A stretch of 40,686 nt of DNA from an uncultured virus (IMG/VR IMGVR_UViG_3300017917_003066) (taxonomy: Duplodnaviria; Heunggongvirae; Uroviricota; Caudoviricetes): IMG/VR virus record IMGVR_UViG_3300017917_003066, one strand, 5' to 3'. Below, one piece after another: positions 1 through 27,168 of this stretch. The position numbers were made by a program, and so were the translations under genes. The notes below the pieces were generated by a model. The model saw nothing but the letters and a program-made list of their open reading frames with translations, was not told where the DNA came from and searched no databases. How positions within the stretch are numbered: the first letter of the stretch is position 1; the number at the start of each line of letters is the position of its first letter.

Positions 1-771
1 CTCTGATATTCTTTCAAGTTCAAAGTCTTCTTTATTTTCGACACCAAAAGAAGAAGCATAGTCTTCTAAACACTTTTTAAAGTATCCACCATATCTGAAA
101 TGATCGGCTCCTTGTATAAAGTCCTGTTCGTTACTCCAGTTCCATCTGATATCTGTTGTGAATACACCTTCAGATATCATTTTATTCAACTCTCTGTCTT
201 TTACATAATTACCATCTATTAATAATAAGTCATATTTATTATTTAGTAATTCTTTTAGTTCTGATATATTATTTGCGATTCCTAAACAATTAGAATTATC
301 AGTTCTTATCTCATCATTTGTTAGTATAATGAACTTATCATTTATTGAACTAAGATAATCTTTATCAAAGATTAAGTTTTTCCAATCACAATGGTCAATA
401 GCTGGTTTGAAAGAAACAAAAAGAGAGTCAGTATCAGCATAAATACTAACTGGCTCATCTTTGCTTATTTGAGTTACATTTTTTATTCCTAAGTTATAGT
501 GTAGTTCATGATCATTATGCCATTGATTGTACCAATAATCTTCGTTAACCTTATCCATTGTTTTTGTAAGGTCTCTTCCTTGTGCTGTGATTGTTCCAGC
601 AACGTGATTATTATATAGAATGAAATATGAGGTCGCAAAGGCACCATATGAGCCGTTAAGAACTAACTTTAACGCAAGTTGAAGAGCGTTATAATAATCT
701 ACTTCTTTTTTAATATCAGAAGCTTGTTTTTTAAGTTGTTCTACCTTTTTTAATTTATCCTCTCTAGTCAT
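1..771 (-). CDS. Family B DNA polymerase, C-terminal (fingers/palm) subunit of a split enzyme; runs off the window edge
   Basis: Not in the ORF track. Manual translation from ATG at 771 is open to position 1 (257 codons): MTREDKLKKVEQLKK...QLALKLVLNGSYG (motif B, 681-643)...TITAQGR...IYADTDSLFV (motif C, 441-424). Confidence 0.9.
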   Translation of the reverse strand, partial: MTREDKLKKVEQLKKQASDIKKEVDYYNALQLALKLVLNGSYGAFATSYFILYNNHVAGTITAQGRDLTKTMDKVNEDYWYNQWHNDHELHYNLGIKNVTQISKDEPVSIYADTDSLFVSFKPAIDHCDWKNLIFDKDYLSSINDKFIILTNDEIRTDNSNCLGIANNISELKELLNNKYDLLLIDGNYVKDRELNKMISEGVFTTDIRWNWSNEQDFIQGADHFRYGGYFKKCLEDYASSFGVENKEDFELERISE

Positions 772-808
772 AGTAGATTTTATATTAAAAAAGAATAATA
801 AAGTTTGT

Positions 809-1336
809 CTATTTTTTATTATTAGACTTAATCATAACTAACCATCTACCACCTTCTAGCTTAGGTAATGATTCTGCTACTCCGAATCCATCTAAGTTAC
901 TAATGTATTTCAGAATAGTTAATTCACCTCTTTCGGGATTGGCTTTTTGTCTTCCTTTTAATTGAAGAACACATTTAATTTTATTACCTTCTTTTAGAAA
1001 TTCAATACTTTTTTTAACTTTTGTATTTAGATCATTATCTGATATTTCGGGACTAAGCTGAATTTCTTTTATTATAGATTTTATTGAGTTTTTCTTTTTC
1101 TCTTTTTCAGCCTTTTCAAAGTTATAAATAAACTTTTTATAATCTTCTATTTTTACAATAGGTGGATTTTGTGACTCATTAATTAGAATTAAGTCTAATC
1201 CTTCTGATTCTGCAATTTTTGAGGCTTCGTATGAACTCATTAATCTAGGTTCATCGTAAAAGCCGATTAGTCTAACTTGTGGAAAGCGAACTTCGCTGTT
1301 AATCTTGTGTTTCTGTCTATTTCTATTAGATTTCAT
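809..1336 (-). CDS. infC: Translation initiation factor IF-3 (phage-encoded)
   Basis: 175 aa with both IF3 domains: KINSEVRFPQVRLIG, EGLDLILI..QNPPIVKIEDY, KEIQLSPEISDNDLNTKVK..EFLKEGNKIK, KGRQ, PKLEGGR. Confidence 0.93.
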   Translation of the reverse strand: MKSNRNRQKHKINSEVRFPQVRLIGFYDEPRLMSSYEASKIAESEGLDLILINESQNPPIVKIEDYKKFIYNFEKAEKEKKKNSIKSIIKEIQLSPEISDNDLNTKVKKSIEFLKEGNKIKCVLQLKGRQKANPERGELTILKYISNLDGFGVAESLPKLEGGRWLVMIKSNNKK

Positions 1337-1377
1337 TTTAAAATTAACTATTGTATAATAGTAGATAAAAAAGTTTA

Positions 1378-1743
1378 TTACTTTATAGAATCTTTCAATA
1401 TTATTTTATTTGATGAATCATTTTTGGCTTTTGAAAAACCAAGAGTGTCTACTTTTGTAGTTTTTGGCTTATACTGTTTTATCGGTTGAACAGTTACAGA
1501 GTCTTTTTTCTCCGTGTAGATTTTTACTATTCTTTGTAAAGAGTCTATTTTTTTATTTTTTAAAATGATCTCGTTGTGATATTGTTTCATCTCAGATAAA
1601 TCATTTTCTATTTGAGTGTGAGATGATTCTGAATTATTATACATATTTACTATAACTGCTAATAGTATAGCAATTATAAGAGACAACCAAGAAACCGCGG
1701 CTCTATTCCTTTTTAAGGATTTTCTATCATTTCTATTTAACAT
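1378..1743 (-). CDS. Single-pass membrane protein with periplasmic coiled coil (possible inner spanin-like protein)
   Basis: Basic N-terminus, hydrophobic WLSLIIAILLAVIV, then a coiled coil with DSL/DSV/DTL/DSI motifs. The function is inference. Confidence 0.5.
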   Translation of the reverse strand: MLNRNDRKSLKRNRAAVSWLSLIIAILLAVIVNMYNNSESSHTQIENDLSEMKQYHNEIILKNKKIDSLQRIVKIYTEKKDSVTVQPIKQYKPKTTKVDTLGFSKAKNDSSNKIILKDSIK

Positions 1744-1763
1744 AGTACAAATATAATAAAAAA

Positions 1764-2543
1764 TTAATCGTCTGAAAAATCTTGCTCAAATGAAAGCATT
1801 AAATTTGAATTTTCATCCTTTACTAACATAAAGTTTTCAAAAATACTGAATTCAATATTTTCCATTTCATTTATACAAGATAAAAACTTCTTATTTAACA
1901 TTAAAGAAGCGTTTCTATCATCATCAAATGATTCTAATTCAAGTTCCCAAGCTGCTTTCTCAGAAAGAACTACTTTACCAGCCACAACACTTATATTGAT
2001 TATTCTATCACTATTAATACTTGATAGTTTTTTTACATCCGAAAATTCAGACTTTTTTATATTGAAGAACCATTTTCTAAATTTTAAATCAAGTCTTTGT
2101 TTAAGAGCACTTTTATTAATATCTCTCATTTCATAATGTTCACCAGCTATCCAATTTACTTTTAATTTTCCACCAACAACTTGTAAGGACCTAGCATCCA
2201 TCACATTATCATCATCTTGAGATTCTTTATATGTTATCTCTAATGTTATTTTTTCTGCACCGTTTATAAAATTCAAATTTTTAACAAACTTCTTAGCATT
2301 TGCGATAATTATATCATAAGAGTGTTCAAGCTCATCACCATAATCTAAATATTCTTTTGTGCTTAAAAGATAATTTTTAAAGGCTAGCATAGTCTGACCA
2401 CTATTCATCATTGAATAGACTAGTATATTTTCACTATCAATTTTCATTTTAATAGTATCATCTATTTTTGTCAGATCATCTAATTTCTCTATAAAGTTTG
2501 AGAACCTATCATTGTTAATCTTGAACTTTACTTTATTTGCCAT
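1764..2543 (-). CDS. Probable DNA sliding clamp (gp45/PCNA fold)
   Basis: 259 aa acidic protein with a twice-repeated strand-helix-strands pattern (KFKINNDRFSNFIEKLDDLTKIDDTIKMKIDSENILVYS / FFNIKKSEFSDVKKLSSINSDRIINISVVAGKVVLS). Lies near polB on the same strand. Confidence 0.6.
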   Translation of the reverse strand: MANKVKFKINNDRFSNFIEKLDDLTKIDDTIKMKIDSENILVYSMMNSGQTMLAFKNYLLSTKEYLDYGDELEHSYDIIIANAKKFVKNLNFINGAEKITLEITYKESQDDDNVMDARSLQVVGGKLKVNWIAGEHYEMRDINKSALKQRLDLKFRKWFFNIKKSEFSDVKKLSSINSDRIINISVVAGKVVLSEKAAWELELESFDDDRNASLMLNKKFLSCINEMENIEFSIFENFMLVKDENSNLMLSFEQDFSDD

Positions 2544-2617
2544 ATTTAAGGTATAATTTACTTACATGATATATTCAAAAATACTTATTTTGTTTATTTG
2601 TTTTTAATATATAAGAT

Positions 2618-3187
2618 ATGATTAAAAATTGGAATCAATTTATTAGAGAGTTTGTAGAAAGTGAAAGCTACATTGATGCAAAAATGCAAGAGCTAAAAGA
2701 TCTTGTTGATGGTGCAACAGAAGGTCAAAATATAATATATGAGTGGGAAAATAAAAATGACCACGAATTGACTGTTAGCTTTTCTTTAGGTGATTTATCT
2801 ATTAAATATGACTTTGATATAGATGATTTACACATAACAAAGACAGCTGGAGATAAAGTTGACTTTCAAACTTCGGTAGAATCTATAGATGAAGGTCTTG
2901 AGATTATTGAAAAAGATATACAGTCTATATTAGGTGTTTCTGAGTCTAGAAAAGGAAGACCTAAATCTCAAAGATACAAAGGTCGTAAGATACCTGGAAA
3001 ATATTTAACTAAGAATCCTAGTAAAATGAAAAAGGAAATAGACACTTTCAGAGGAAAGAATGTTTATAAAAAAGATTGGGATGCTGATTACACAACCGGT
3101 AAAGGCGGTCAGGGTAAAAGAGTTAAGACTAAAAAGTCAGCAGCTACTAAAGCTTATCAACGAATGTTTGGTGATAAAGAAAAATAA
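2618..3187 (+). CDS. Putative virion head protein: acidic N-domain plus basic C-domain resembling the N-half of DUF5824
   Basis: Leader MIKNWNQFIRE; C-terminal KIPGKYL...KTKKSAATKAYQRMFG; upstream TATATA. Confidence 0.55.
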   Translation: MIKNWNQFIREFVESESYIDAKMQELKDLVDGATEGQNIIYEWENKNDHELTVSFSLGDLSIKYDFDIDDLHITKTAGDKVDFQTSVESIDEGLEIIEKDIQSILGVSESRKGRPKSQRYKGRKIPGKYLTKNPSKMKKEIDTFRGKNVYKKDWDADYTTGKGGQGKRVKTKKSAATKAYQRMFGDKEK

Positions 3188-3196
3188 AAAAAATAT

Positions 3197-3613
3197 ATGA
3201 AAAATCTATTAAAATTTGAAGAATTGTTTGAGGACTTTTCACTTTATTTAGAAGGTGAAGATCTTGAATTAGAATATGACCTCACTGAATATGATGAAGA
3301 GTATGATGAAGAGTATGATGAAGAGGATTTACAAGATGATGAAAAATACTATGAAAATAAAAAATCAGGTGTAACTGCTTCATTAAAAAAGAAATCAAAA
3401 GCTTCAGGTATTCCTATGGGTATTTTAAGAAAAGTATTTGCTAAAGGAATGCAAGCTTGGAATGCTGGACACAGACCAGGTGTAGCTCAACACCAATGGG
3501 GAATGGGTAGAGTAAACTCATTTATTACTGGTGCTGGTGGTGCTAGAAAAGCTGATGCTGATTTATGGGCTAAGGCTAAAGCAGCAAAAGCAAGAAAAAA
3601 GAAAAAGAAGTAA
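3197..3613 (+). CDS. DUF5824-like protein (C-half) with acidic propeptide
   Basis: SLKKKSKASGIPMGILRKVFAKGMQAWNAGHRPGVAQHQWGMGRVNSF...ADADL; leader MKNLLKFEELFE followed by a D/E-rich tract. Confidence 0.7.
   Translation: MKNLLKFEELFEDFSLYLEGEDLELEYDLTEYDEEYDEEYDEEDLQDDEKYYENKKSGVTASLKKKSKASGIPMGILRKVFAKGMQAWNAGHRPGVAQHQWGMGRVNSFITGAGGARKADADLWAKAKAAKARKKKKK
3290..3325 (+). repeat. Three tandem copies of 12 bp TATGATGAAGAG (YDEE)
   Basis: Read directly at 3290, 3302, 3314. Confidence 0.9.
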
Positions 3614-4014
3614 TGAAACACTTACAAAAATTTGAAGGATTTATAATTCCAAAATCTGTTCGTAAGTTTCATCCTTGGTGGAAAGACGAAGATATTGCTT
3701 TAGAGATTCTTAAAGATTTGAAAAAACTAAAAGGTAATTCAGAAGATATTGCTAAATTATTAATATCTAAAGAAGGTGGTTGGTATTCATTCACAATAGA
3801 TGGTTTTAATTTCAAAGTTAATTATGGTTTCCATATGTCACCAGGTGGTGGTAGTTATAGTGGTGACATGAAAATGAATGATAAGTATATGAAAGTATCA
3901 TCTGAAGTTTGTAAACAAATTTTTAATTTAGTTGATAGGTTAAAGAATACTGAGAAGATAGAACAAGAAGATGATGATAAAAAAGACTTTAGGATCAATC
4001 GTGGATTGATATAA
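3613..4014 (+). CDS. Hypothetical protein with MKHLQKFE leader (putative head-internal protein)
   Basis: 133 aa ORF coupled (TAATG) to the upstream gene; followed by a terminator. Confidence 0.6.
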   Translation: MKHLQKFEGFIIPKSVRKFHPWWKDEDIALEILKDLKKLKGNSEDIAKLLISKEGGWYSFTIDGFNFKVNYGFHMSPGGGSYSGDMKMNDKYMKVSSEVCKQIFNLVDRLKNTEKIEQEDDDKKDFRINRGLI

Positions 4015-4017
4015 ATA

Positions 4018-4047
4018 AAAAACCCTCTGATTTCTCAGAGGGTTTTT
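4018..4047. terminator. Bidirectional rho-independent terminator
   Basis: AAAAACCCTCTGA-TTTC-TCAGAGGGTTTTT between convergent genes. Confidence 0.9.
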
Positions 4048-4051
4048 AGTT

Positions 4052-5482
4052 TTAAGCCATTTCTTCAATTTGAATTTCAACTTGAGCTCGTTCACGAACT
4101 TCCTCAAACGTCCATTCTTTCATGACTTTACCATTTAAGAATACTTCAACCAATTCGTCTCCATCTTCATCGTGTGAATGTTCAACGGTTTGACCATCTA
4201 CTAATTTCAAACGACCAGCTTTTGACTTTTTGAAAGATTGTACTCTTTCGCCTTTCTCGTTAATCTCAATTGGATTTTTACGAACTTCGGCTTCTTCACC
4301 GTTGATAGTGATAGAAGAACATTTGAAGGCAAATTTTTGAGTATCTCTGTCTACTTTTTGTAGAAGAGCACCACCCATTCCAAATGCGATGTTTTCAATT
4401 GAGAACCCTTCTTCAATCATCATATTACAGATATCTGAGATTGATTCATAATTAACACCATCACCTTGAATTACTCTAACGTGTGGGTCAAGTACCTTGA
4501 ACCCTTTGTCGTTAGTTGTTCCACCAAACTTATTCCATAAAATATGGAAGATTTGTTTTAGCGTTTGTACTGGATCACCTGAGTCAGGACGAATTACTAA
4601 ACGTCCGTCACGAGATAAGATTTTATCTCTTAAAGCTGTTCCCCAATAATCTCTACAAGCACGGATGATATCGAAAGAGTCAGATACACAAGCAACTAAG
4701 CCTGTAGGATAAGAATCTAACATATTTTCCATTGCTTTGACTTCGAATGGTTCGCCCCAAGAAGTCATTGTAGAATGCTCAGAAGCCGGAATTGAGAAAG
4801 CTAGTGGATTCTCAGTATTGTAGAACTCTTGAGCGAACAAGATAGCTGATACAGTGTCAGTTCCCATAAAGTTGATGATATGAGAAGAGCCACCTAAACC
4901 AGATGATTCTACAGAACTTACACCTCGGAAACCGAAATCATGTAACATGAAAGCTACTACACCACTAATTTCTTCTGGGTTGTAAGATGTTGTTTTTTTA
5001 AGATAGTTAATAAGATTTTTCTTAACTTCTCTTGAAAGAGTACCAACTGTAATTGGATACCAAACTTGTAGTAAGATACTTTCTAAGAAGTTAGTTAACC
5101 AAGGAACTTCTGGATCAGTGTTTTCAACTGTAACAAGAACGTTTCCTGTTTTAACCACTGTTCCTTCTGGAACTGCTTTTATGCGAACCGGTAAATATCC
5201 GTTGTGTTTATCTAGAATATGTCTCCAACCAGACTCATTGAATAAGCCAGGTCCTAAGTGAGCATCCCAAAGTTTTTTAGCTTGTTGAATTTTTTCTTCT
5301 GTTACGACTTGACCAGACAAATACTGTTTGATGAAGTATTGTAAACCATAGAACATAGTGTTGTTAAATTTACCACCTCTTGATTCAAGATAAGAGTAAA
5401 CTTTTGTAGATCCTTTCGGATACTGCTTCCAGTGTGTTGCTTTGTAACTGTCGGTCAGTGTTAAAATGTTATTATTATACAT
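4052..5482 (-). CDS. nadV: Nicotinamide phosphoribosyltransferase (NAMPT)
   Basis: TDSYKATHWKQYP, YSYLESRGG, LHDFGFRGVSS, SIPASEHS, VIRPDSGDP, VIQGDG, FGMGGALLQKVDRDTQKFAFK, KKSKAGRL. Confidence 0.97.
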   Translation of the reverse strand: MYNNNILTLTDSYKATHWKQYPKGSTKVYSYLESRGGKFNNTMFYGLQYFIKQYLSGQVVTEEKIQQAKKLWDAHLGPGLFNESGWRHILDKHNGYLPVRIKAVPEGTVVKTGNVLVTVENTDPEVPWLTNFLESILLQVWYPITVGTLSREVKKNLINYLKKTTSYNPEEISGVVAFMLHDFGFRGVSSVESSGLGGSSHIINFMGTDTVSAILFAQEFYNTENPLAFSIPASEHSTMTSWGEPFEVKAMENMLDSYPTGLVACVSDSFDIIRACRDYWGTALRDKILSRDGRLVIRPDSGDPVQTLKQIFHILWNKFGGTTNDKGFKVLDPHVRVIQGDGVNYESISDICNMMIEEGFSIENIAFGMGGALLQKVDRDTQKFAFKCSSITINGEEAEVRKNPIEINEKGERVQSFKKSKAGRLKLVDGQTVEHSHDEDGDELVEVFLNGKVMKEWTFEEVRERAQVEIQIEEMA

Positions 5483-5504
5483 AACTTATAGATTTATTAT
5501 TATA

Positions 5505-5536
5505 CAAATTTACGACTTTTTTATCAATCTATCAAA
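5505..5536 (-). promoter_or_regulatory. Bacteroidota-type primary sigma promoter for nadV
   Basis: Minus strand TTTG (5536-5533)-N20-TAAATTTG (5512-5505), matching the -33/-7 consensus TTTG-N19-21-TAnnTTTG. Confidence 0.7.
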
Positions 5537-6598
5537 ATATTCCACAAATATTTCGTGGTCTACTGATACAGAAATTCTCGATACATTCTTCAACTTTTCT
5601 TCAGTATTTTTGAATGTGAATTTATTCAAAGGAACACTTGAAATTTTAGCTGAAAGTAATTCATCAAATGTTTTATTGATGATAGCAAATGGTCCTGTTG
5701 GAATATCTGTATATTCATCAAATAACAAACCATTATCAGAAAGATATTGAATGTTCTTTGTGATGTGATGTTTTGTTTTCATTCTGTAATTATCAAAAGC
5801 CATCTGACCTTGGTTAGAAGTAAGAAGTTGATTGATAATCTCTTGTGGAACTGTTGAGATAGAGTTATACTTATACAAAGAACGAATCTTCATAGTATCA
5901 TATAATTCTTTATTCTTAGTAGCAATATAACCAATTCTCAATCCTGATAAACCAACTGATTTAGAGAATGAGGAAATAACAATTACGTTGTCTGAATAAA
6001 GTTCATAGATTTTATCAGACATTTCATTGAATAAGTAATAATAAGGTAAGTCTAAGATAAGAGTTTGATTTCTTTCTTTACAAATATCAGCAAATGCTTT
6101 TAAGTCTTCAAACTTAGGAGCATATCCTGTTGGATTTGATGGGTAACATAACATTACAACACCTTCACCAACTTCAGTATTTTTGATATCAAAATCATTA
6201 AATGTTTTGATTTCTTTACCGTGAATAGTAAGAATTTTATTCCAAGAGCCCCAGTGATATTTAGGTACCCAGAATGTTTTATCTGATAGTGAATTAATAA
6301 CAACATCTAATGTAGCCATTCCACCTGGAACGGTCATTACATAATGATTATTAAGATGAAACTTATCTTTTATAGTTTCAATAAGGTTAGCATCACCATC
6401 ATTACCACCATATTGTTGAATTTTCTTTTGATTGAAATCAATGTTTTGAGCAAATGAGTTCAAATCGATTGTTGTAACATCCATGACTCCACGATGAAGT
6501 TTAAGATATTTGTCACCAGTCTCTTTTTCTAGTTTTGCGGCTAATTCACCAATCTCAACGATTGACGAATAAGTTACAGGAGAAGTGTTTACGTTCAT
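5510..6598 (-). CDS. PLP-dependent aminotransferase, class I/II fold
   Basis: YPSNPTG, LILDLPY, SFSKSVGLSGLRIGY (Schiff-base Lys), C-terminal RISVS. Confidence 0.92.
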   Translation of the reverse strand: MNVNTSPVTYSSIVEIGELAAKLEKETGDKYLKLHRGVMDVTTIDLNSFAQNIDFNQKKIQQYGGNDGDANLIETIKDKFHLNNHYVMTVPGGMATLDVVINSLSDKTFWVPKYHWGSWNKILTIHGKEIKTFNDFDIKNTEVGEGVVMLCYPSNPTGYAPKFEDLKAFADICKERNQTLILDLPYYYLFNEMSDKIYELYSDNVIVISSFSKSVGLSGLRIGYIATKNKELYDTMKIRSLYKYNSISTVPQEIINQLLTSNQGQMAFDNYRMKTKHHITKNIQYLSDNGLLFDEYTDIPTGPFAIINKTFDELLSAKISSVPLNKFTFKNTEEKLKNVSRISVSVDHEIFVEYFDRLIKKS

Positions 6599-6604
6599 AT
6601 ATTT

Positions 6605-7504
6605 TTATTTTTTTAAATCTTCTAAAAACATTGTCATTAGAACTTTATGTTCTTTAACAATATCAACTTTTTCTAATTCAGACACATTAAACCATTTTAG
6701 TTCAGAAATATCATCTGATGGTTCTATTCTACCCCAACCTTTAGTTGTTTTGTAAAATATGGTCATTATTTTATCTTCCTCACTTTGATATCTCCAATCA
6801 GGTACTTGAACACTACCAATATATTTTAAATCAGTTATTGACAAGTTTCCACCAGCATCTTCGCTTACTTTTCTACGAGCGGTATGCTCATAACTAGTAT
6901 CTGTTGGTTTAGCAAAACCTCCGATAAATCTCCAAGCATCCTCGTATGGTCTTTTTGCTAAAAGTAGTTTATCATTTTCCATAATAGCAACATCAACACA
7001 TGGGTGTACTTTAGGATATTGATTATAAGATTGATAAATAACACCAGCTCTAAAATCAGTTGAGTCTTTAACCTCAGATGAAACCATCTTTCTAACTTCA
7101 GTACCTGATACAAAAGTATACTGGTCTAACTCTTGACAGTCAAATTGGCCACCACCATTTTTATAGTAAGGAATAAATGAGTCTCTACCACCATACATAA
7201 GAACATCACCAATTGGATAAACTTCTTTAATACGCTTGTCTAACTCATGTGACCATCTTTTATCATCACCAAAGTCCGGTAGAGCAAGAATAACAATTTC
7301 TGGATAATGATGTTGAATCATTTTTTTACGAGATTCAAAATCTAAAGGATTTTTCTTAGTACCAACAACTTTAGGAACGCCAAGAAAAAGAATAACTTTT
7401 TTATGATTTTTAACTACTTGGTCTATTAAGTAGTGATGAGCTTCATGTAGTTCATGAACTTGAAATCTACCAACTAAAGCTCCTATTGTATATGATTTAT
7501 CCAT
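6605..7504 (-). CDS. NMN adenylyltransferase-Nudix fusion (NadM-Nudix/NatV-like) with degenerate Nudix box
   Basis: VGRFQVHELHEAH, KNPLDFESRK, YGGRDSF, VSGTEVRK, DFRAGVIY, then a Nudix fold. Start revised to ATG 7504 because the track's TTG start lies inside the -7 promoter element. Confidence 0.9.
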   Translation of the reverse strand: MDKSYTIGALVGRFQVHELHEAHHYLIDQVVKNHKKVILFLGVPKVVGTKKNPLDFESRKKMIQHHYPEIVILALPDFGDDKRWSHELDKRIKEVYPIGDVLMYGGRDSFIPYYKNGGGQFDCQELDQYTFVSGTEVRKMVSSEVKDSTDFRAGVIYQSYNQYPKVHPCVDVAIMENDKLLLAKRPYEDAWRFIGGFAKPTDTSYEHTARRKVSEDAGGNLSITDLKYIGSVQVPDWRYQSEEDKIMTIFYKTTKGWGRIEPSDDISELKWFNVSELEKVDIVKEHKVLMTMFLEDLKK

Positions 7505-7522
7505 TATAATATAATTAGTATA

Positions 7523-7530
7523 CAAATATA
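7523..7530 (-). promoter_or_regulatory. Bacteroidota -7 promoter element upstream of the NAD cluster
   Basis: TATATTTG (TAnnTTTG) 18 nt upstream of ATG 7504; no clear -33 TTTG. Confidence 0.55.
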
Positions 7531-7537
7531 AGGAAAT

Positions 7538-7864
7538 TTATAACATTTCCTCTAAGGTTTTTCTCATAAAATTTTCAATTTCTCTTAATTTTTTAAGATT
7601 AGTAGTGACATCTAATTGAATTCTGAACTTTTTAACTTCCAATTCTTCATCTTCGGTTATTTCTTTTACATCAAAATTTAATTCTTGTTTTTGTTCAATG
7701 ATTTCTTTAAATCTTTTATCTGTTAATATATTCTCTATAGTTAGAGGACATTTAATTCCATCTTTATCTATGTTATAAACATCATCAACCTCTATAACTT
7801 GGTCTTTCGATAAAACTGTTATGTTGAAAAAAATTACATCTTCTTTTATTAAAAACTTTCTCAT
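7538..7864 (-). CDS. Hypothetical protein
   Basis: 108 aa ORF with genome-typical composition. Confidence 0.6.
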   Translation of the reverse strand: MRKFLIKEDVIFFNITVLSKDQVIEVDDVYNIDKDGIKCPLTIENILTDKRFKEIIEQKQELNFDVKEITEDEELEVKKFRIQLDVTTNLKKLREIENFMRKTLEEML

Positions 7865-7901
7865 ATATTAAAAATGACTTTGAAAAATAATATATACTTA
7901 T

Positions 7902-9035
7902 ATGATAAAAGGTTATAATGGTTTCTTATTACATCAATTAAAAGCTGAGTTATTTTCTTTATGTGAAGATAGTCTTTATGCATCAAGTGAACTTTTAGTA
8001 AAGTTAAAAAAGATGTCTAGTATGGAAGGCAAAGTAGGTGAGATTGCTACTGCAATTGTTGACACTATTGAAGATGAAAGTTGGTTGGATGATAAAGATA
8101 CTAAGCAAAACTTTTTTGATGTTACTGACAAAGAAGATACTATTTCTTTTTTACCATCAAACAAACTTCCAAAAGATTGGGATGAAGATGATGATCCATC
8201 GTTACCATATTCTACAGTTGGTAGAAGTGAAATAAAAATTGGAAGAATGGTAAGAGCTTTATTAAAAATTGCTGAAATATCTGATAAAGTGGACTCTTCT
8301 ATAAAAGATAAAGATTATGAAGAATTTGTAAATGTTTTCAAGTCACTTAAAATTGATACATCTAGAGAGTTTAAATTAGTTAATGGTGATGATATTCACA
8401 AATATTATCAAATGAAAAACTACTACTCATCACATGGTGCTTTAGGTGGATCTTGTATGGCGGATGAAGGAAAAGGAACATTTAAAGTTTATAGTGAAAA
8501 TCCAAAAAAAGTACAATTACTTGTTTTAATGGATGGTAATGGTAAGATTCATGGACGTGCCCTTGTTTGGAAATTAAAAGAATCTCCTTGTGAGTCTAAA
8601 TATTTTATGGATAGAGTTTATACAAACGCGGATTCTGATGTTATTAAGTTTAAAGCATTTGCTGAAGAAAAGGGATTTCTTTATAAACAAAAAAATAACA
8701 GTTATATTGAAGATAATGTTAAGTTCATGTATAAAGGTAAACCATTATTAGGAGAGGTTAAAGTAAAACTGGATGGTGATTTCAAAGAATATCCATTCAT
8801 CGATACTATGTGCTTCTTGAGTAAGAAACTTGGTGACCTATCAAATATACCTTCTAAAGATTGTTACTTTTTACATTCAGTTTCAGGTGATTGTGAAGTT
8901 TGTAACGACTGTGATGGTGAAATACTTGTTTATGATGATACGGAACTTTGTAATAGTTGTGGTTTAGGTATTGACGAATTAGAAAAGGCCGGTATCAAAA
9001 CTAAAATTGGTAAGAAAATAAAGGAAGATAATTGA
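7902..9035 (+). CDS. Conserved phage protein with SCM...GRALVW...FMDRVY motifs and a C-terminal CxxC-x12-CxxC zinc site
   Basis: Motifs visible in the translation (LGGSCM, IHGRALVWKL, YFMDRVYT, YPFIDTM, CNDC...CNSC); TATATA 5 nt upstream. Confidence 0.6.
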   Translation: MIKGYNGFLLHQLKAELFSLCEDSLYASSELLVKLKKMSSMEGKVGEIATAIVDTIEDESWLDDKDTKQNFFDVTDKEDTISFLPSNKLPKDWDEDDDPSLPYSTVGRSEIKIGRMVRALLKIAEISDKVDSSIKDKDYEEFVNVFKSLKIDTSREFKLVNGDDIHKYYQMKNYYSSHGALGGSCMADEGKGTFKVYSENPKKVQLLVLMDGNGKIHGRALVWKLKESPCESKYFMDRVYTNADSDVIKFKAFAEEKGFLYKQKNNSYIEDNVKFMYKGKPLLGEVKVKLDGDFKEYPFIDTMCFLSKKLGDLSNIPSKDCYFLHSVSGDCEVCNDCDGEILVYDDTELCNSCGLGIDELEKAGIKTKIGKKIKEDN

Positions 9036-9530
9036 TTATCTTCCCAAATAATTCATCAACTCAATCATATTCTTAATAGAGAATCCAAATGATTCTAAGT
9101 TTCTAACAGTTTCTCTTAAAAATTCTATATAAGATTCTATTAACTCAATACTTCTGTCATTTTCAGCGATATGACCATCTATAAGAATACCTTTTTCACC
9201 TAAGTTTGTTTTAATACCAAATCCGGTTGCATAAAATACAAACTTTTCTTGTCTAAGTTTTTTAATCTTAGTTGTTTCTTTACTTCTTTTGTTTAAGAAA
9301 AAGTTAATCTGCTCATTTATTTGTTGTCTAAATGTAAGAGCAACAGATTGAGCGTCTAATAAACTTCTTGAATTTGATGGATTACTTAAATCAACTGATA
9401 AAACTTTGAATAAAGGTTCAACATTTTTATTCCACTCGGCTCTTTTATCGTTAAAGAACTCTTCCATTTTATCGTTAGTTTCTTTAGCTTTTGTTATTCT
9501 GTCTATTTCTTCTTGATTATAAAGATTCAT
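9036..9530 (-). CDS. UvsY-like recombination mediator
   Basis: All-helical 164 aa; KKLRQEKFVFYATG...EKGILIDG...IEFLRETVRNLESFGFSIKNMIELMNYLG resembles the T4 UvsY C-terminus. Confidence 0.65.
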   Translation of the reverse strand: MNLYNQEEIDRITKAKETNDKMEEFFNDKRAEWNKNVEPLFKVLSVDLSNPSNSRSLLDAQSVALTFRQQINEQINFFLNKRSKETTKIKKLRQEKFVFYATGFGIKTNLGEKGILIDGHIAENDRSIELIESYIEFLRETVRNLESFGFSIKNMIELMNYLGR

Positions 9531-9957
9531 TGTCTGGTAATATTTTTTTCATTTGATATGTTCTATATAAATTTTTATTATAACAAGAACTTAAAGATTT
9601 TTCTATAATATTTGTTGTTTTTTCTGAAATATTTCTATTTATATATTCTTCTAAAATAGAACTCCATTTTTCTACCAAAGTTTTATCTTCATAAATTATA
9701 TTTTCAGATCCATGCTCATATGTAATTTCTATACAGCTGTTTCTATTATCAATTACTATGTCAATAGATTCTGACATTCTGAATGATCTTAATCGACCAT
9801 AAGACTGATTATTGTTATCTTCTTCTTCTGGCTTTTCATCAATACTGAAAGAAACATAATAATATCTATACCCATATTTCATTTTTTTATATATGTCAAT
9901 TCTTTCATCAGATTCATTCTCTAATAAGAATTGTAAAAATTCATCAATTTCTTTCAT
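9517..9957 (-). CDS. Hypothetical protein
   Basis: 146 aa ORF overlapping the uvsY-like start. Confidence 0.6.
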   Translation of the reverse strand: MKEIDEFLQFLLENESDERIDIYKKMKYGYRYYYVSFSIDEKPEEEDNNNQSYGRLRSFRMSESIDIVIDNRNSCIEITYEHGSENIIYEDKTLVEKWSSILEEYINRNISEKTTNIIEKSLSSCYNKNLYRTYQMKKILPDNESL

Positions 9958-10052
9958 CTTCGATTATTCTTTTTATTTTAAAGTATCTAATATTACTTTA
10001 AGTTCGTTCATATTACTTTTATAAAAAAAGATATTATTTGTTTTTATTGCAT

Positions 10053-10080
10053 AAAAAAACCTCCCTATTTGGGAGGTTTT
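10053..10080 (-). terminator. Rho-independent terminator
   Basis: Minus strand AAAACCTCCC-AAATA-GGGAGGTTTTTTT just after the 10097 stop. Confidence 0.85.
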
Positions 10081-10096
10081 ATATTTTTATTATCTT

Positions 10097-10723
10097 TTAT
10101 TGAAAATCTTCAAAACCTTTTATTTTTGATGGCATTTCATCCTCAATTTCATTTGGTTCTTCAGAAGTATATTCCTCTTCTGATTCTTCATTTCCAACTT
10201 CTTCAACTTCTTCATCGTTAAAATCTTCTTCATCTTCTGAGTAAAATTCTTCACCTTCGGGTGAATTATGACCTGCTAAAAAGTCAAACACTTGCTCTAA
10301 ATTTTCAGTAGCAACTGAAATATGATCAGAAGCCCAATCATGTTCGGTTAAAATCGAATCTATTTTACTATGATCCATATTCATTAATTCATCGATTAAT
10401 CTTTTCATAGTTTCTAAGTTACCAAAAAACATATAGTTAGAATGTTCTTTGTGTTCTTTTAATGAACCTAAAGTTTTAGCTAGGTTAAGTCGTCTGAATT
10501 TAGTTAAGTCTTTTTTAGAAAGACCTTGAACTCCTTTTTTACTAGAGTCTTTATCTTTACCTTTTAATTTAGATAATTCAGCATTAATCTCTGATTTAGA
10601 GATTTTATCACCTTCTTCTTTGCCCATAGATTTCTTCAAAGCACCTGGGTTTTTTATAGCATCTTGAATCCATTTGTCTCCTTTTGCTTCTTCGTTAAAT
10701 GAACTAAATGATTTAATACTCAT
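10097..10723 (-). CDS. Putative head-internal multi-module protein
   Basis: Leader MSIKSFSSFNEE; basic module KWIQDAIKNPGALKKSMG...RLNLAKTL; helical module NYMFFGNLE...HDWASDHIS...QVFDFL; acidic tail. Confidence 0.6.
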   Translation of the reverse strand: MSIKSFSSFNEEAKGDKWIQDAIKNPGALKKSMGKEEGDKISKSEINAELSKLKGKDKDSSKKGVQGLSKKDLTKFRRLNLAKTLGSLKEHKEHSNYMFFGNLETMKRLIDELMNMDHSKIDSILTEHDWASDHISVATENLEQVFDFLAGHNSPEGEEFYSEDEEDFNDEEVEEVGNEESEEEYTSEEPNEIEDEMPSKIKGFEDFQ

Positions 10724-10783
10724 AATCAGTTTTTAATTTTTTAATTTTTATGTTAATTATATATTAAATTATAATATCGTTTT

Positions 10784-11938
10784 TTATTTTAACACGGTGA
10801 CTACCTCTGGATAGTATTTTCCAATCTCTGGATTTTTGTCATCATAGTCTATTGCGTTGATAACATATCTCATAGCGTTTAGTCTTCCTATCTTTTTATC
10901 ATTTGAGTTTATTATAACCCAAGGTGACATCCTACTGGAAGTTTTTGAGAACATTTGATTTTTGAAATTACCTATAATTTCCCATTTGTCTAAAACTTTA
11001 GCATCATTTGGTGAAAATTTCCAATATTTAAGAGGACTTTTTTGTCTAAGTTCAAATCTTTTGATTTGTTTTTCTTGTGTTATTGAGAACCAAAATTTAA
11101 TTAAGATTAGACCATTTGATATTAGACTTTCTTCCCAATCTATTACTTTATTCATGAAATCATTATATTGTTCTTCTGTGCAATAACCCATAGCAGGTTC
11201 TACAACAGCTCTATTATACCAACTTCTATCAAAGAAAACTATTTCTCCTGGTTTTGGTAGATGTTTCTCATATCTTTGAAACCAGTTTTTCTTTTCTTCT
11301 TCTGTTGGTAAACCAAGTGCTACAACTTTGAAGCCTTTAGGATTTAAGTATTCTGTAAATCTTTTAATAGTTGAACCTTTTCCAGCGGCATCTCTACCCT
11401 CAAATACTATAGCTACTCTTTTGCCATTTTTAGCGGCCCATTCTTGTAGTTTAAGTAGCTCTATTTGAATTTGATATTTTTCAGATTCATATTGTTTTCT
11501 AGGTAATATAGATCCTTCACCACCTGGTATCTCAAATTGTTCAGAATTTCCACTTCCAGATACTTTTATATTGGATACTCTATCATCTATCGATCTATAA
11601 TATTCATCAAAAGATTCTCTTACTTTTCTTTTTGTATTTCTTTTTCTTAAATCTAATATTTGATTTAATTTTCTTAAAAATGTTTCAACATTCAACTCTT
11701 TAACAAAGTCTTCTGTGTACTCATTTATTAATTCTCTCATTATAACTTTTATGTCAACTCTATCAAAGTTTTTATATTCTACTTTATTAGTTTTTAAGTT
11801 ATATTCAATATTAGCTAATATATAAGTTCTATATTCGCTTAATCTAAATTTGAAATTATCAACTGTTGCTTTTAGAGTTTTTTCATCTAAGTCAGATATA
11901 CTAACTTCTTCATTAAATTTGTTAAAATTAAGAATCAT
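10784..11938 (-). CDS. ppk2: Polyphosphate kinase 2 (class I-like) with ~135 aa N-terminal extension
   Basis: Walker A IVFEGRDAAGKGSTIKR, WFQRYEKHLP..GEIVFFDRSWYNRAVVE, LKYWKFSPND, PWVIINSNDKK..RLN. Confidence 0.95.
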   Translation of the reverse strand: MILNFNKFNEEVSISDLDEKTLKATVDNFKFRLSEYRTYILANIEYNLKTNKVEYKNFDRVDIKVIMRELINEYTEDFVKELNVETFLRKLNQILDLRKRNTKRKVRESFDEYYRSIDDRVSNIKVSGSGNSEQFEIPGGEGSILPRKQYESEKYQIQIELLKLQEWAAKNGKRVAIVFEGRDAAGKGSTIKRFTEYLNPKGFKVVALGLPTEEEKKNWFQRYEKHLPKPGEIVFFDRSWYNRAVVEPAMGYCTEEQYNDFMNKVIDWEESLISNGLILIKFWFSITQEKQIKRFELRQKSPLKYWKFSPNDAKVLDKWEIIGNFKNQMFSKTSSRMSPWVIINSNDKKIGRLNAMRYVINAIDYDDKNPEIGKYYPEVVTVLK

Positions 11939-11980
11939 AAAATGTTCTATTTTTATGTATATATAAAATATCTAAAAACA

Positions 11981-12004
11981 AAAAACCCACTTAAAAGTGG
12001 GTTT
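11981..12004 (-). terminator. Rho-independent terminator
   Basis: AAACCCACT-TAAA-AGTGGGTTT hairpin with a minus-strand T tract after the WYL gene. Confidence 0.8.
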
Positions 12005-12023
12005 AATATTAATTTTCTATTAA

Positions 12024-12926
12024 TTAGACTTTCTTATCAAAAAGATAAAGATCGTATATAGCATTTCCTTTTACTTTCTTAATATTCTTTAAAACTTGAC
12101 CGGTAGTTGAGTCTAATACTTTATAAACTCCAATATTTATACCTTTATCATCTAAAACTTTAACTGTGTTGCCTGGTTGTCCTAACGCGCCTAAAACAGC
12201 AATATATTTGTTTCCATAGATACTTTTTAAGAACGAAACTTTAGCTGTTGCTATGTCTTTAATATTATTAACATAAGCATTATCTAAAGGATTATTTAAA
12301 TCTAGAACAGTTCCAGTATTTTTTGTTCTTATAGTAACTGACTTTCTTTCTTCATCACCTAAAGTAACTTCTTCTCTATTTTGTATTTTATTCTGACTAA
12401 CTAATGCTTGTTGATTTCTTCTAATTTCATTAAAATCAGCACGAGCTATATAACCACCTCTCATACCTTTATCGTTCATATTATAACCAACTGGCGCTAG
12501 TCTATAAAATGAACCTGTGAAAGTCATTGATAGTATTCTATCTGTTCTGAATAATCTCCATATTTTTTCAGTGTGTCTTTTTTGAGAAACAGACCAACCA
12601 TTTAAGTGCCAAGCTCTTAAAAGAACCTTTCCTTTTGAAGACCTTCCCAGAACCATTGGATATACTGCTCTTTCATGACCAGCAAAGTGATTGTCTTCTT
12701 CACCTTTATAGTTAATAAGAAATATCATACCATACTTAATAGCTTTAATCATTGTCTGATCCGAGTATTTAATAGGTTCGTTTATTGGAATATTAGCAAT
12801 ATCTTTTACATTTTTTAATGTAAATTTAGAAACATACTCTTTGTCCTCTACTAATTCGTAGTTCTCACGAATAACAAACTCAACGGGTTTCTTATTATAG
12901 TAATCTTTTAATTGAGACAAATTCAT
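12024..12926 (-). CDS. WYL-domain protein without HTH
   Basis: AIKYGMIFLINY...ERAVYPMVLG...LLRAWHL...WRLFRTDRILSM matches the WYL pattern. Confidence 0.75.
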   Translation of the reverse strand: MNLSQLKDYYNKKPVEFVIRENYELVEDKEYVSKFTLKNVKDIANIPINEPIKYSDQTMIKAIKYGMIFLINYKGEEDNHFAGHERAVYPMVLGRSSKGKVLLRAWHLNGWSVSQKRHTEKIWRLFRTDRILSMTFTGSFYRLAPVGYNMNDKGMRGGYIARADFNEIRRNQQALVSQNKIQNREEVTLGDEERKSVTIRTKNTGTVLDLNNPLDNAYVNNIKDIATAKVSFLKSIYGNKYIAVLGALGQPGNTVKVLDDKGINIGVYKVLDSTTGQVLKNIKKVKGNAIYDLYLFDKKV

Positions 12927-12951
12927 AAGGTATATATTAAATTGTACCCAC

Positions 12952-13674
12952 CTATTTTAATCTTTCTATCGTTAAGTCTATTGCTCTTTGATTTATGTCA
13001 CAACCTATAAATCTTCTATTTAAGTTTCTACAAGAAACGGCAGTTGTTCCACTTCCTAAATAAAAATCACCAACTAAGTCATTTTCATCTGATGAGGATT
13101 TAATAATTCTTTCAACAAGTGAAAGAGGCTTTTGAGTATCATATCCTACTCTTTCTTTTTTATCATTTTGTCCAAGTATATTTATTTGCCAAACATCACC
13201 AATTACTTTTCCTTCTGGATGATAATATTTTTCTTTTTCATATCCTCTAGGTGCTGTTTCTGAGTAGGGTTCTCTTGGTGGATTGAATTTATAATTATCT
13301 GTTTTAGTATATCTTAAAATAACATCATGTCTTTTACCAAAATCCAATTTTTTTCTTGGAGCGGTGTTATAATACCATATAATTTCATTTCTCATTTTAT
13401 CATATCCAAAAATATCATCCATTATACATCTAATCCAATGATTAATCTTAGTATCCATTTGAAGATAAATAGTTCCTGTGTCTTTAAGAATACGATGCAT
13501 TTCTTTTATTCTTGGAATATAATGTTGTTCGATATCTGACTTAATAGGTTTTAAGTCTTGATAATCAGAAAATTTACGACCAGTTCCGTATAATATATCA
13601 GAATAGATAAGATCAATTGATTTATCTTCAATTGATTTCATGAAATCTAAATTATCTTGACATTCTATTCTCAT
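12952..13674 (-). CDS. N6-adenine/N4-cytosine DNA methyltransferase (beta order) with atypical DILY motif IV
   Basis: IDLIYSDILYGTG, RILKDTGTIY, NEIIWYY, DVWQI, YDTQKPLSLVERII, DFYLGSGTT, RRFIGCDIN. Confidence 0.88.
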   Translation of the reverse strand: MRIECQDNLDFMKSIEDKSIDLIYSDILYGTGRKFSDYQDLKPIKSDIEQHYIPRIKEMHRILKDTGTIYLQMDTKINHWIRCIMDDIFGYDKMRNEIIWYYNTAPRKKLDFGKRHDVILRYTKTDNYKFNPPREPYSETAPRGYEKEKYYHPEGKVIGDVWQINILGQNDKKERVGYDTQKPLSLVERIIKSSSDENDLVGDFYLGSGTTAVSCRNLNRRFIGCDINQRAIDLTIERLK

Positions 13675-13710
13675 ATAAATTTTATTATTAATTATGAATT
13701 TGTTTAAAAC

Positions 13711-13738
13711 AAAAAGAGAGACTGAAAAGTCTCTCTTT
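13711..13738 (-). terminator. Rho-independent terminator
   Basis: AAAGAGAGACT-GAAA-AGTCTCTCTTT just after the lipoprotein stop. Confidence 0.88.
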
Positions 13739-13756
13739 AATCTAACTATTTTTTAC

Positions 13757-13936: not shown

Positions 13937-14056
13937 AATTGTTTGTTTTTTTGTTTTTTTGATTTTGTATCGAATATTATATATCAAAATTAAATTATGT
14001 TGTTTTGAAAATTAGAAAAAAAAATTTAATATATAAATAAACATTAAAAACAATAT

Positions 14057-16012: not shown

Positions 16013-16026
16013 TAAAATTAAAATAT

Positions 16027-16252: not shown

Positions 16253-16254
16253 GA

Positions 16255-16881: not shown

Positions 16882-18071
16882 ATTTTATATATTTGTTTTC
16901 TAATCTTTACGATTAAATCATGAATAAATTCAGCATCTACAGTATATGGTAGTGAAGAATTATCAAAAAGTTTATCAATTTCGATAATCTCTTTTTCCAC
17001 GCTATCAATAAGAGTTTGTAAGTCAACCTCACCTTTTCTAATAGAAATTAATTCCTCAGCATTTGGTCTACGAACAATAATTCCTTTACCTTCACCAATT
17101 TCACGAGCCATTTGAATAAGACGTTTGCAGTGCATCATATTTTTACCGTCAATCTTTTGACCATGTGATTTAACATCAACCCATCTAGCCTCATTTCTCT
17201 GTTCCAACCAAGTTTGATAAGACTTATAATCATTACAGTGTTGAGTATAACCATCTTTGTTATAAGTAACAATACAGATAGCTTTTTCTCCTTTTGGAAT
17301 AGAAGAAAGTCTTAGTTGATTTGATTCAGCAGAGTTAACACCTTCTCCGGTTTTAATCAAACCTTTATAGCCAAAACCCATAGGATTTCCAGATTCTTTT
17401 TGAAACTTAATCAGAGTATTTCTAGTTGATTCGGAAACATTTTCAGAAAACATATTTCTAGCAACAACATCATAATAGACAGCATAAATATCTCTAGCAT
17501 TAGGAACATTAACAACTCCAATAAATTTTTCTTCAAATTCTCTTTCACCATCTGAATTCCAAACTTTCCAAGGAATAGATTTCTCACCTTCAATTACATA
17601 AACAAAATCAAGTACATCTTTACGAGTTACTTTATCTTTTTCCCAGTTTTGTTTTTTATTTTGACCTTTTGCTTTAGAGATTTGTTGTTTAGCGTAACCA
17701 CCAAATGACTTAGCACAAATTTTTGTGATAAATTTTTCTCTATTTTCTAAAATTATATCAAAAACAGGATCTTTGTAAATAACACAATCTTCCGGAGTAT
17801 TTAAAAGTTCAAGAACAGTTGGATTATTAGTACCTACAAGTTCAAGAAATCTTCTTACTTCATAAATAACGGTATCATTTGTATCATCATTAATTTGTTC
17901 TTGATATTTATTTCCTAAAATATCATCCATTGATTGGATAAAAACACCAGCATAGTCAGTATCAGATGTTTCAAGATTAGTACCATAAGCGTGTGATCCT
18001 CTTATAACTAAGTATATAGGTTTAGCACCAGGTGACTTTTCTTGAATAAGTTTAATTAGTTCTTCTTTCAT
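16878..18071 (-). CDS. Pol-beta superfamily nucleotidyltransferase (YcgL/RlaP/NrdC.11-like)
   Basis: RGSHAYGTNLETSDTDYAGVF, NNPTVLELL, SFGGYA..QI, DGKNMMHCKRL, ELISIRKG. Confidence 0.88.
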   Translation of the reverse strand: MKEELIKLIQEKSPGAKPIYLVIRGSHAYGTNLETSDTDYAGVFIQSMDDILGNKYQEQINDDTNDTVIYEVRRFLELVGTNNPTVLELLNTPEDCVIYKDPVFDIILENREKFITKICAKSFGGYAKQQISKAKGQNKKQNWEKDKVTRKDVLDFVYVIEGEKSIPWKVWNSDGEREFEEKFIGVVNVPNARDIYAVYYDVVARNMFSENVSESTRNTLIKFQKESGNPMGFGYKGLIKTGEGVNSAESNQLRLSSIPKGEKAICIVTYNKDGYTQHCNDYKSYQTWLEQRNEARWVDVKSHGQKIDGKNMMHCKRLIQMAREIGEGKGIIVRRPNAEELISIRKGEVDLQTLIDSVEKEIIEIDKLFDNSSLPYTVDAEFIHDLIVKIRKQIYKI

Positions 18072-18121: not shown

Positions 18122-18141
18122 TAAAGATTTATTGAATTTAA

Positions 18142-18147
18142 TATATA
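18142..18147 (+). promoter_or_regulatory. Putative late promoter TATATA heading the structural cluster (one of about 13 copies)
   Basis: The same hexamer, mostly in an AATATATA context, also lies at 2608, 7891, 10758, 11958, 12931, 13978, 14030, 15153, 23239, 27139, 27159 and 35063, each intergenic and upstream of a gene start. Analogous to the T4 late promoter TATAAATA. Confidence 0.65.
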
Positions 18148-23206: not shown

Positions 23207-23248
23207 ATATAGTTCAAATTGTCGAATGGTGGATAAAATATATAGATT

Positions 23249-27132: not shown

Positions 27133-27168
27133 ATTAAATATATAGATTAATAAAATAATATATAGTTA

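Follow-up and report, generated by a model that had tools for sequence, protein, structure and literature searches.

The 40,686-nucleotide (nt) stretch of DNA described here, hereafter the window, is the IMG/VR record of an uncultured virus (IMGVR_UViG_3300017917_003066). It carries a gene for the translation initiation factor IF3 (infC), and a recurring box, AATATATA, stands upstream of a number of its genes, in several cases only 4-5 nt before an ATG. An earlier sequence-only reading had joined the two, proposing that many transcripts of this phage are leaderless and that its IF3 retunes host ribosomes toward them. Here, we report that the two features are both real but probably independent of each other, a likely promoter box fused to start codons on the one hand and an accessory IF3 gene on the other. 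The IF3 gene and its neighbors, with lengths in amino acids (aa), are as follows.

1378..1743, minus strand: gene of unknown function, 121 aa, upstream of IF3 (from the list of open reading frames [ORFs])
809..1336, minus strand: phage infC (IF3), 175 aa, ATG start; N domain, Lys-rich linker, and C domain (phrog_9787, 1.2e-37)
1..771, minus strand: family B DNA polymerase gene (polB), 5' part, running off the window; downstream of IF3 on the same strand (PF00136, 3.8e-14)

IF3 is directly upstream of polB, between the 121-aa gene and polB, all on the same strand, and the 121-aa gene is probably the first cistron of a unit that holds IF3 and polB. The infC-rpmI-rplT operon arrangement was not seen at the window IF3.

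The predicted product of infC is a full-length, conventional two-domain IF3, and in this respect, ATG start included, the sequence-only reading was confirmed. The protein matched Pfam IF3_N (1.3e-17, residues 12-80) and IF3_C (1.6e-21, residues 89-169), scored 129.7 bits against the TIGR00168 infC equivalog (cut-off, 60; residues 7-170 on model positions 2-166 of 170), and matched PHROG 9787 ("translation initiation factor") and solved IF3 chains (best, 8jsg_A, 8.7e-27). The Lys-rich linker, KAEKEKKKNSIKS, aligned without gaps to E. coli IF3 and to a second solved IF3; in comparison with bacterial IF3 (PDB 8jsg_A, 5me0_Y, and 5lmn_X), the Y of KF(I/L)Y, the G-R of the C-domain loop, and most core positions aligned. 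Domains and linker length are those of bacterial IF3, at about 35-39% identity. Homologues numbered 599 at an E value of ≤1e-10, the best 120 being 61-88% identical, with 471,672 bases as the length of the longest contig among them; a 164,686-base contig is the recorded source of the window IF3 itself. Mean column identity was 69% in an alignment of 28 of the best 120. When 185,579 species genomes were scanned with the family alignment, none of the 50 pattern matches was a relative, and the scan pointed to no bacterial donor or host. IF3 relatives were present in 60 phage records, to which the window copy was only 31-39% identical. Like the IF3 proteins of other huge and jumbo phages (PHROG 9787; Serratia phage BF, Yersinia phage fHe-Yen9-04, and Vibrio phages), it is a full-length two-domain protein, but it represents a separate, well-populated lineage encoded in a cassette upstream of polB. 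It is a new member of the known phage IF3s, and phage IF3 is already in print.

All five phage IF3 genes inspected (those of the window, its closest IMG/VR contig G001, LR756504.1, LR756501.1, and Serratia phage BF) started with ATG. An autoregulated infC has a near-cognate start (AUU, AUA, or AUC) at which IF3 represses its own gene, and the window gene lacks such a start; bacterial infC starts with AUU in E. coli or AUA in Flavobacterium johnsoniae and is followed by rpmI-rplT, whereas the window infC has ATG and is without rpmI-rplT. Since infC of F. johnsoniae has an ATA start and presumably controls its own expression (PMC7797042), it is reasonable to suppose that an ATG-start phage infC escapes autoregulation, and the earlier claim of a non-autoregulated infC agrees with this. 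Given its ATG start, the phage gene would not be held back by the feedback to which host IF3 synthesis is subject.

What lies upstream of polB differs among relatives. In the sub-lineage of the window, this site holds IF3 and the small gene; in relatives without IF3, 6-10 kilobases (kb) of other DNA are found there (in LR745206.1 and LR756502.1, between the homologue of window gene 1764-2543 and polB, and in loci L112-L115). Compared across these loci, IF3 is an accessory cassette inserted just upstream of polB in one sub-lineage.

The recurring box AATATATA was seen on inspection of the 60 nt upstream of every called window gene. Twelve copies were present on both strands, of which 10 lay ≤35 nt upstream of a correctly oriented ORF that is 80 codons or longer, six of them at 4-5 nt and the other four at 19-34 nt; in the reverse-complement control, 1 of 12 lay within 35 nt upstream of an ORF. 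The gene-linked sites, together with one site of the host type, are listed below (N4, N5, and N21 denote the number of nt between box and ATG).

2606..2613, plus strand: box, N4, ATG 2618 (189-aa gene); box-N4-ATG in two of three orthologues, N21 in the third
7889..7896, plus strand: box, N5, ATG 7902 (377-aa gene); box fused to ATG in both orthologues
12931..12938, minus strand: box, N4, ATG 12926 (300-aa gene); the LR745206.1 orthologue is also box-N4-ATG
16886..16893, minus strand: box, N4, ATG 16881 (208-aa gene); inside the end of the upstream gene; missing from the sites listed by the sequence-only reading
23237..23244, plus strand: box, N4, ATG 23249 (1196-aa collagen-like tail fibre protein; box scan)
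27157..27164, plus strand: box, N4, ATG 27169 (2611-aa collagen-repeat protein; box scan)
27137-27144, plus strand: second box, 20 nt upstream of the box at 27157..27164 (box scan)
14028..14035, plus strand: box of the leadered class, 21 nt before ATG 14057; fifth nt after the box is A; the LR745206.1 orthologue has a variant box at N4
18140..18147, plus strand: box of the leadered class, 19 nt before ATG 18167 (box scan)
10758..10765, minus strand: box of the leadered class, 34 nt before ATG 10723 (box scan)
1748..1755, minus strand: TATATTTG, an exact consensus match to the Bacteroidota -7 box TAHHTTTG, followed by TACT and ATG 1743

TATATA-N4/5-ATG occurred 9 times against 1.94 expected, a count reached in 0 of 100 shuffles, and AATATATA-N4-ATG occurred 5 times against 0.10 expected by shuffling. 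All six box-fused ATGs were the first possible start of their ORF, and tblastn alignments to relatives began at residue 1. In total, 7 of the 31 called window genes had a box fused to the ATG. The eight sites named by the sequence-only reading all read as written once strand was allowed for (771, 1743, 12926, and 13674 are on the minus strand), and six stood as box sites: 2618, 12926, 23249, and 27169 (N4) and 7902 (N5) carry AATATATA, and 1743 carries the host-type box. The other two, 771 and 13674, were rejected as promoter-fused starts, having no recurring box and upstream sequence that is unconserved in orthologues.

Further copies and variants were seen near the fibre genes. AATATATAGATT was present at 23237 (fused to ATG) and at 27137 (within 27137-27148, 20 nt before another box), and the string ATGGTGGATAA was repeated just upstream of two fibre genes (23225-23248 and 35075-35085), which suggests that promoter modules were duplicated in front of fibre genes. 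A variant box, TTTATATATA, is followed by GTAA and the ATG of an 18-codon ORF (35063-35131, plus strand) that ends 5 nt before the collagen-gene ATG at 35137; this ORF may act as an upstream ORF on a leaderless message, or the stretch may simply begin a 62-nt leader.

The box was compared in five related records. G001 (155,228 bases, used whole) encodes an IF3 76% identical to that of the window; W01 (LR745206.1), W02 (LR756502.1), W03 (LR756504.1), and W04 (LR756501.1) were represented by the first 400 kb of each 634- to 735-kb record. The polB fragment of the window was 70.9% identical to that of W01 (634,780 bases) and 70.4% identical to that of W02 (642,428 bases), both uncultured phage genomes. 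All genomes of >634 kb in Al-Shayeb et al. 2020 belong to the "Mahaphage" clade, for which Bacteroidetes hosts were predicted (PMC7162821), and the host of the window phage is probably in the Bacteroidota. Spacing was taken from the box to the first ATG opening at least 80 codons, with a reverse-complement control over the same number of boxes, and the counts at 3-6, 8-15, and 16-29 nt were as follows.

G001: 33, 2, and 16 (n = 72 boxes); control at 3-6 nt, 0
W01 (LR745206.1): 51, 6, and 57 (n = 213); control at 3-6 nt, 3
W02 (LR756502.1): 74, 10, and 59 (n = 248); control at 3-6 nt, 10
W03 (LR756504.1): 22, 3, and 37 (n = 138); control at 3-6 nt, 0
W04 (LR756501.1): 11, 10, and 40 (n = 165); control at 3-6 nt, 1

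In each of the five records, spacings followed a bimodal distribution: boxes were concentrated at 4-6 nt and at 16-29 nt, and a gap separated the two groups at 8-15 nt (2-10 boxes per record, versus 11-74 at 3-6 nt). The box-N4/5-ATG arrangement was retained in orthologues at 50-89% protein identity. An exact box stood 4-6 nt before 30 of 198 genes in G001 and 47 of 482 in W01, and a host-type box stood at 3-5 nt before a further 12 and 21 genes, respectively; overall, box-to-ATG fusion amounted to 14-23% of called genes. The host-type box TAHHTTTG had its own peak 4 nt from ATGs (10 in G001, 13 in W01, and 15 in W03).

The box, (TT)AATATATA, is most likely a promoter because its spacing is bimodal and an A is conserved at the position of the A of the ATG. 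In the long-spacing class, the fifth nt after the box was A in 194 of 236 copies (window and five records pooled), with neighboring positions averaging 59% A; among copies that have no gene start close by, 154 of 364 had A at this position (Fisher 3.9e-23 versus the long-spacing class). For the window, G001, and W01 alone, the figure was 85% (n = 86). The A of the ATG in the N4 class occupies this same fifth position, and a preferred A five nt after the box, common to both classes, is as expected for the initiating nucleotide. TT preceded 59-73% of functional boxes in the five records, versus 7-23% of copies without a nearby start (the 12 boxes of the window are too few for this comparison). 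The same gene may have its box at N4 in one genome and at about N21 in another (the 2618 gene, in LR756502.1, and the 14057 gene, in LR745206.1), which is expected for a promoter and not for a fixed translational signal. Promoters of the sigma-70 type were not enriched in window positions 1-20000 (118 sites versus 114.8 expected).

Start codons at N4-6 after the box (window and five records) were ATG in 196 cases, GTG in 7, and TTG in 0. AUG is the preferred codon in leaderless initiation, which a leader of just a few nt already inhibits (PMC8459731), and the near-empty 8- to 15-nt gap and near-exclusive ATG fit these known rules. The short-spacing class most likely gives rise to leaderless mRNA, and the proposal that many phage transcripts are leaderless held up in the form that the start of many transcripts probably coincides with the ATG or directly adjoins it. 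The claimed absence of Shine-Dalgarno (SD) sequences was also upheld: at -15 to -5, G made up only 4-11% in the 199 and 482 called genes of two relatives, leaving no SD signal. Lack of SD is the norm in the Bacteroidota, where initiation uses A-rich, unstructured upstream sequence (PMC6847099).

The latter mode of initiation is also the starting point for another explanation, by which the box is an AU-rich translation signal (for S1, or as an unstructured start region) on messages begun further upstream, so that the genes are leadered. Upstream of the genes, A is frequent from -17 to -9 and again at -3, as such a signal would have it, and the box at 16886-16893 lies inside the preceding gene, so that read-through transcripts must contain it. 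This explanation predicts one preferred distance, however, whereas spacing is bimodal with the 8- to 15-nt gap, and the conserved A five nt after the box fits a start site rather than a ribosome contact 16-29 nt from the ATG. Movement of the same gene between the two spacings in relatives and the identical N4 peak of the host -7 promoter box also argue against it, and we regard it as unlikely.

For a promoter, the geometry is close to that of the host phylum. The -7 box of F. johnsoniae extends from T-12 to G-5, with the transcription start 4-5 nt after the box (PMC6847099), and (TT)AATATATA would occupy the place of this box, ending 4 nt before a transcription start that is an A. At about half of the gene-near boxes, this A would be the A of the start codon, giving an RNA that begins with AUG and is leaderless, to be translated without any upstream ribosome-binding sequence. 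At the other half, with the ATG 16-29 nt downstream, the RNA would carry a leader that is short, A-rich, and free of SD; a length of roughly 3-10 nt would be avoided because it serves both initiation modes poorly. Some host-type boxes (TAHHTTTG-N4-ATG, as at 1743) would be fused to start codons likewise. Relative to Bacteroidota promoters (-33 TTTG and -7 TAHHTTTG, sigma ABfr; PMC6847099), the register is the same (box end at -5 and start 4-5 nt later), SD is lacking, leaders are A-rich, and the site at 1743 is an exact consensus match, but the phage box is without TTTG, and only the window site at 1748-1755 matches. In F. johnsoniae, 87% of predicted transcripts have leaders of >10 nt (PMC6847099), compared with 14-23% of called genes box-fused in the phage clade.

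T4 late promoters consist of a TATAAATA octamer that is read by gp55 with gp33 and the gp45 clamp, and T4 late messages have SD-bearing leaders. The phage box would be similar in being an 8- to 10-bp TATA-type box near -10 with no clear -35 element, and relatives have a candidate gp55-like protein (three of the five) and a Gp23-type capsid protein (four). The phage box differs in sequence, ends 4 rather than 5 nt before the inferred start, and has about half of its gene-near copies fused to an ATG. The PHROG "late sigma transcription factor" (phrog_234) was matched in W01 (1.6e-6), W02 (1.9e-5), and W03 (1.3e-9), with no match in G001 or W04, and an ECF-like sigma ORF (regions 2 and 4) was present in four of the five related records. 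We infer that the gp55-like small phage sigma factor would be the likeliest reader of the box.

Resemblance to a TATA box, with a long-spacing peak (19-22 nt) near the archaeal TATA-to-start distance, raises a further possibility: the box might be of the archaeal/eukaryotic type, about 25 nt before the start, in which case the 16- to 29-nt class would be leaderless and the N4 class unrelated. TFIIB is among the huge-phage genes in a figure legend of PMC7162821. The N4 peak (reverse-complement controls of 0-10) would go unexplained, as would, for the long-spacing class, the A conserved at the fifth nt, and the relatives encode bacterial-type sigma factors; we consider this scarcely credible.

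Terminator-like hairpins were also more numerous than expected in window positions 1-20000 (14 versus 5.3), several of them between convergent or tandem genes (11983-12004, 13713-13738, 16025-16061, 4018-4047, and 10056-10080). The hairpin at 11983-12004 reads as a terminator on both strands.

Whether IF3 is tied to this promoter design can be judged from relatives without it. IF3 was absent from LR745206.1 and LR756502.1 (TIGR00168 and PF00707), and the same searches found IF3 in G001, W03, W04, and control genomes. Boxes at 3-6 nt numbered 51 of 213 and 74 of 248 in these two IF3-free records, against 33 of 72, 22 of 138, and 11 of 165 in IF3-bearing G001, W03, and W04. IF3 was also absent from G003 (a 483-kb contig, 98% complete), whose 20-kb locus had 5 of 11 boxes at 3-6 nt. 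Among five parent contigs searched, G003, G004, and G005 (154 kb, rated 27% complete) were without IF3, and G002 (436 kb) and G006 had it. Ten IMG/VR loci defined by a conserved neighbor gene, several of them near-duplicates, had IF3 between the neighbor and polB in six cases and lacked it there in four; each of the 10, with or without IF3, had between three and six boxes of short spacing in 20 kb and at most one box in the gap. The short-spacing share of functional boxes was 21-63% with IF3 and 46-58% without. Conversely, a 40-kb stretch of IF3-bearing Serratia phage BF had 0 of 7 boxes at 3-6 nt. The co-occurrence of infC with short spacing that the sequence-only reading had offered as a check was thus not found, and IF3 and the promoter-fused ATGs look unrelated because IF3-free relatives have the same architecture.

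These counts bear directly on the proposal that an altered phage IF3 tolerates or favors 5'-terminal AUGs and, free of autoregulation, accumulates and retunes host ribosomes. Its motive is that E. coli IF3 can inhibit leaderless translation (PMC8459731), which gives a reason to change IF3. IF3 and promoter-fused ATGs do occur together in the window, G001, G002, and G006, the start is ATG here against ATA in F. johnsoniae infC, and the phage family is conserved within itself (69% mean column identity, 28 members) and distant from other phage IF3s (31-39% identical). Yet the architecture is equally strong in W01, W02, and the G003 locus, which are without IF3, the short-spacing shares overlap as given above, and IF3 is grouped with replication genes and not with box-driven genes. 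Nor did the residues described as divergent bear out that label. DYKKF and LKGRQ are both in the window IF3 translation, but the DYKKF position varies inside the phage family (K, N, G, and S), and solved bacterial IF3s have DYGKF, DYSKW, or DYNKF at the first motif and FRGRE or FKGRA at the second; LKGRQ retains the G-R core, and its K is also found in a solved bacterial IF3 (FKGRA). The "usual" bacterial DYGK and FRGRE are the E. coli pattern. We consider retuning by IF3 decidedly unlikely. Where present, the phage IF3 would probably just add to or replace host IF3 (30S supply, anti-association, and start-site fidelity) and would not be specifically tuned to leaderless messages.

The ribosomal protein bS21 was encoded in all four huge relatives, W01 to W04 (E values of 3e-12 to 6e-17), with or without IF3; bS21 of the Bacteroidota helps to hide the anti-SD sequence (PMC7797042). 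This permits a compound scheme in which the phage IF3, if its fidelity is kept, shuts off host infC via autoregulation and replaces host IF3 on the 30S subunit and, if more tolerant of a 5' AUG than the host factor, boosts the leaderless regulon in the sub-lineage that carries it, with IF3-free relatives using other means, such as bS21. We give this scheme very little credence.

Our preferred reading, of a promoter box fused to ATGs and an independent accessory IF3, has several points against it. The transcription start is placed by geometry, the conserved A, and analogy, and the support for probable leaderless messages, although good, comes from sequence. In T4 late geometry, the box is at -13 to -6, and a start 1-2 nt further downstream, as in that geometry, would leave N4 messages without an intact AUG. 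The box sequence differs both from the T4 TATAAATA and from the host TAHHTTTG, and a sigma factor gene was found neither in the 40-kb window nor in G001, both of which are fragments. Gene starts were set by simple ORF rules (first ATG; ≥75 or ≥80 codons) rather than by a trained gene finder. Of the 55 box-driven genes of G001, 52 were searched against PHROG (3 crossing chunk borders were left out), and at 1e-6, matches were obtained for 5 of 33 short-class and 8 of 19 long-class proteins (13 of 52). The annotated box-driven genes include some for tail fibre, virion protein, endolysin, and endonuclease VII but also members of primase-like and nuclease families, and because matches are few and functions mixed, a "late" timing class is not established. 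As to IF3, the IF3-free relatives all carry bS21, so that the role suggested for IF3 might be filled by a different translation factor of the phage, and a modulating role of IF3 where present is compatible with the absence of co-occurrence across about 10 genomes.

The window is part of a large uncultured T4-related phage, a distant relationship that is drawn from the Gp23-type capsid proteins in four of the five related records. Its gene content is phage type (the 5' part of family B DNA polymerase, PPK2, N6/N4 DNA methylase, and collagen-like tail fibres), and it encodes an endolysin with a peptidoglycan-binding domain, nicotinamide phosphoribosyltransferase (NAMPT), and a cytidylyltransferase-like/NUDIX protein (a weak phrog_395 match plus NUDIX), which, by analogy to KVP40 NatV, could be an NMNAT. 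A giant eukaryotic virus was rejected as the source in view of the endolysin, the phage NAD-salvage genes, and the Gp23-type capsids of relatives. Megablast of window positions 1-8000 against a phage collection gave no match. G001 was rated 83% complete, yet searches found in it no Gp23-type capsid, sigma factor, or bS21, all of which are present in relatives of 436-735 kb; because it is without a capsid gene and sigma factors, G001 is taken to be a fragment despite this estimate, and for this clade the estimate probably overstates completeness by a wide margin.

The NAD-salvage module (NAMPT and the cytidylyltransferase-like/NUDIX protein) adjoins a class I/II aminotransferase (4052-7525 and 10784-11938, both minus strand), with a PPK2 polyphosphate kinase nearby; the NAMPT was 99% identical to that of G001, although IF3 was only 76% identical. 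Two giant proteins of collagen triple-helix repeats were encoded on the plus strand (2611 aa at 27169-35004 and at least 1850 aa at 35137-40686, the latter running off the window), with Pfam Collagen E values of 3.8e-286 and 1.2e-202, respectively. G+C content was 26-34% across the first 24 kb and reached 48% only over these two genes (47-49%, against about 28% elsewhere), where spurious long ORFs occur in other frames.

Parts of this arrangement have precedents. IF1, IF3, S1, and S21 of huge phages were already proposed to intercept and redirect host translation (Al-Shayeb et al. 2020), and the word "leaderless" is absent from the main text of that paper (PMC7162821). For bacteria, Zheng et al. 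2011 (PMC3160421) took a TANNNT box located about 12 bp ahead of the start codon as the sign of a leaderless gene; in that survey, and in the leaderless lambda cI, a -10-type box abuts the start codon with no 5' untranslated region (UTR), as in the phage design. Only 1 of 37 Bacteroidetes/Chlorobi genomes had such genes, at 2.4% of genes (PMC3160421), whereas here the design is found in a phage of that host phylum and with a box of its own. No leaderless transcript was reported for phiKZ (PMC8244752), and the UTRs of AR9 are 26-491 nt (PMC5312081). In the literature searched and the passages cited here, we found no report of a leaderless design for this clade; bioRxiv supplements may bear on the point, as may the ribosome-binding motifs predicted for each genome in the supplement to PMC7162821. 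A phage-specific box systematically fused to start codons in huge phages of the Bacteroidota is a new form of known things.

The IF3 gene is real and conserved but accessory, and its tuning to leaderless messages is without comparative support. If 5'-end mapping confirms the starts proposed here, a clade of very large Bacteroidota phages would make about one gene in five to seven leaderless from a dedicated box, in a host phylum that rarely uses leaderless messages and with none reported in the 5'-end maps of phiKZ and AR9. The clade would then be a natural system for how SD-ignoring ribosomes handle 5'-terminal AUGs, and box-N4-ATG would be a simple rule for gene starts and transcription units in poorly annotated genomes.

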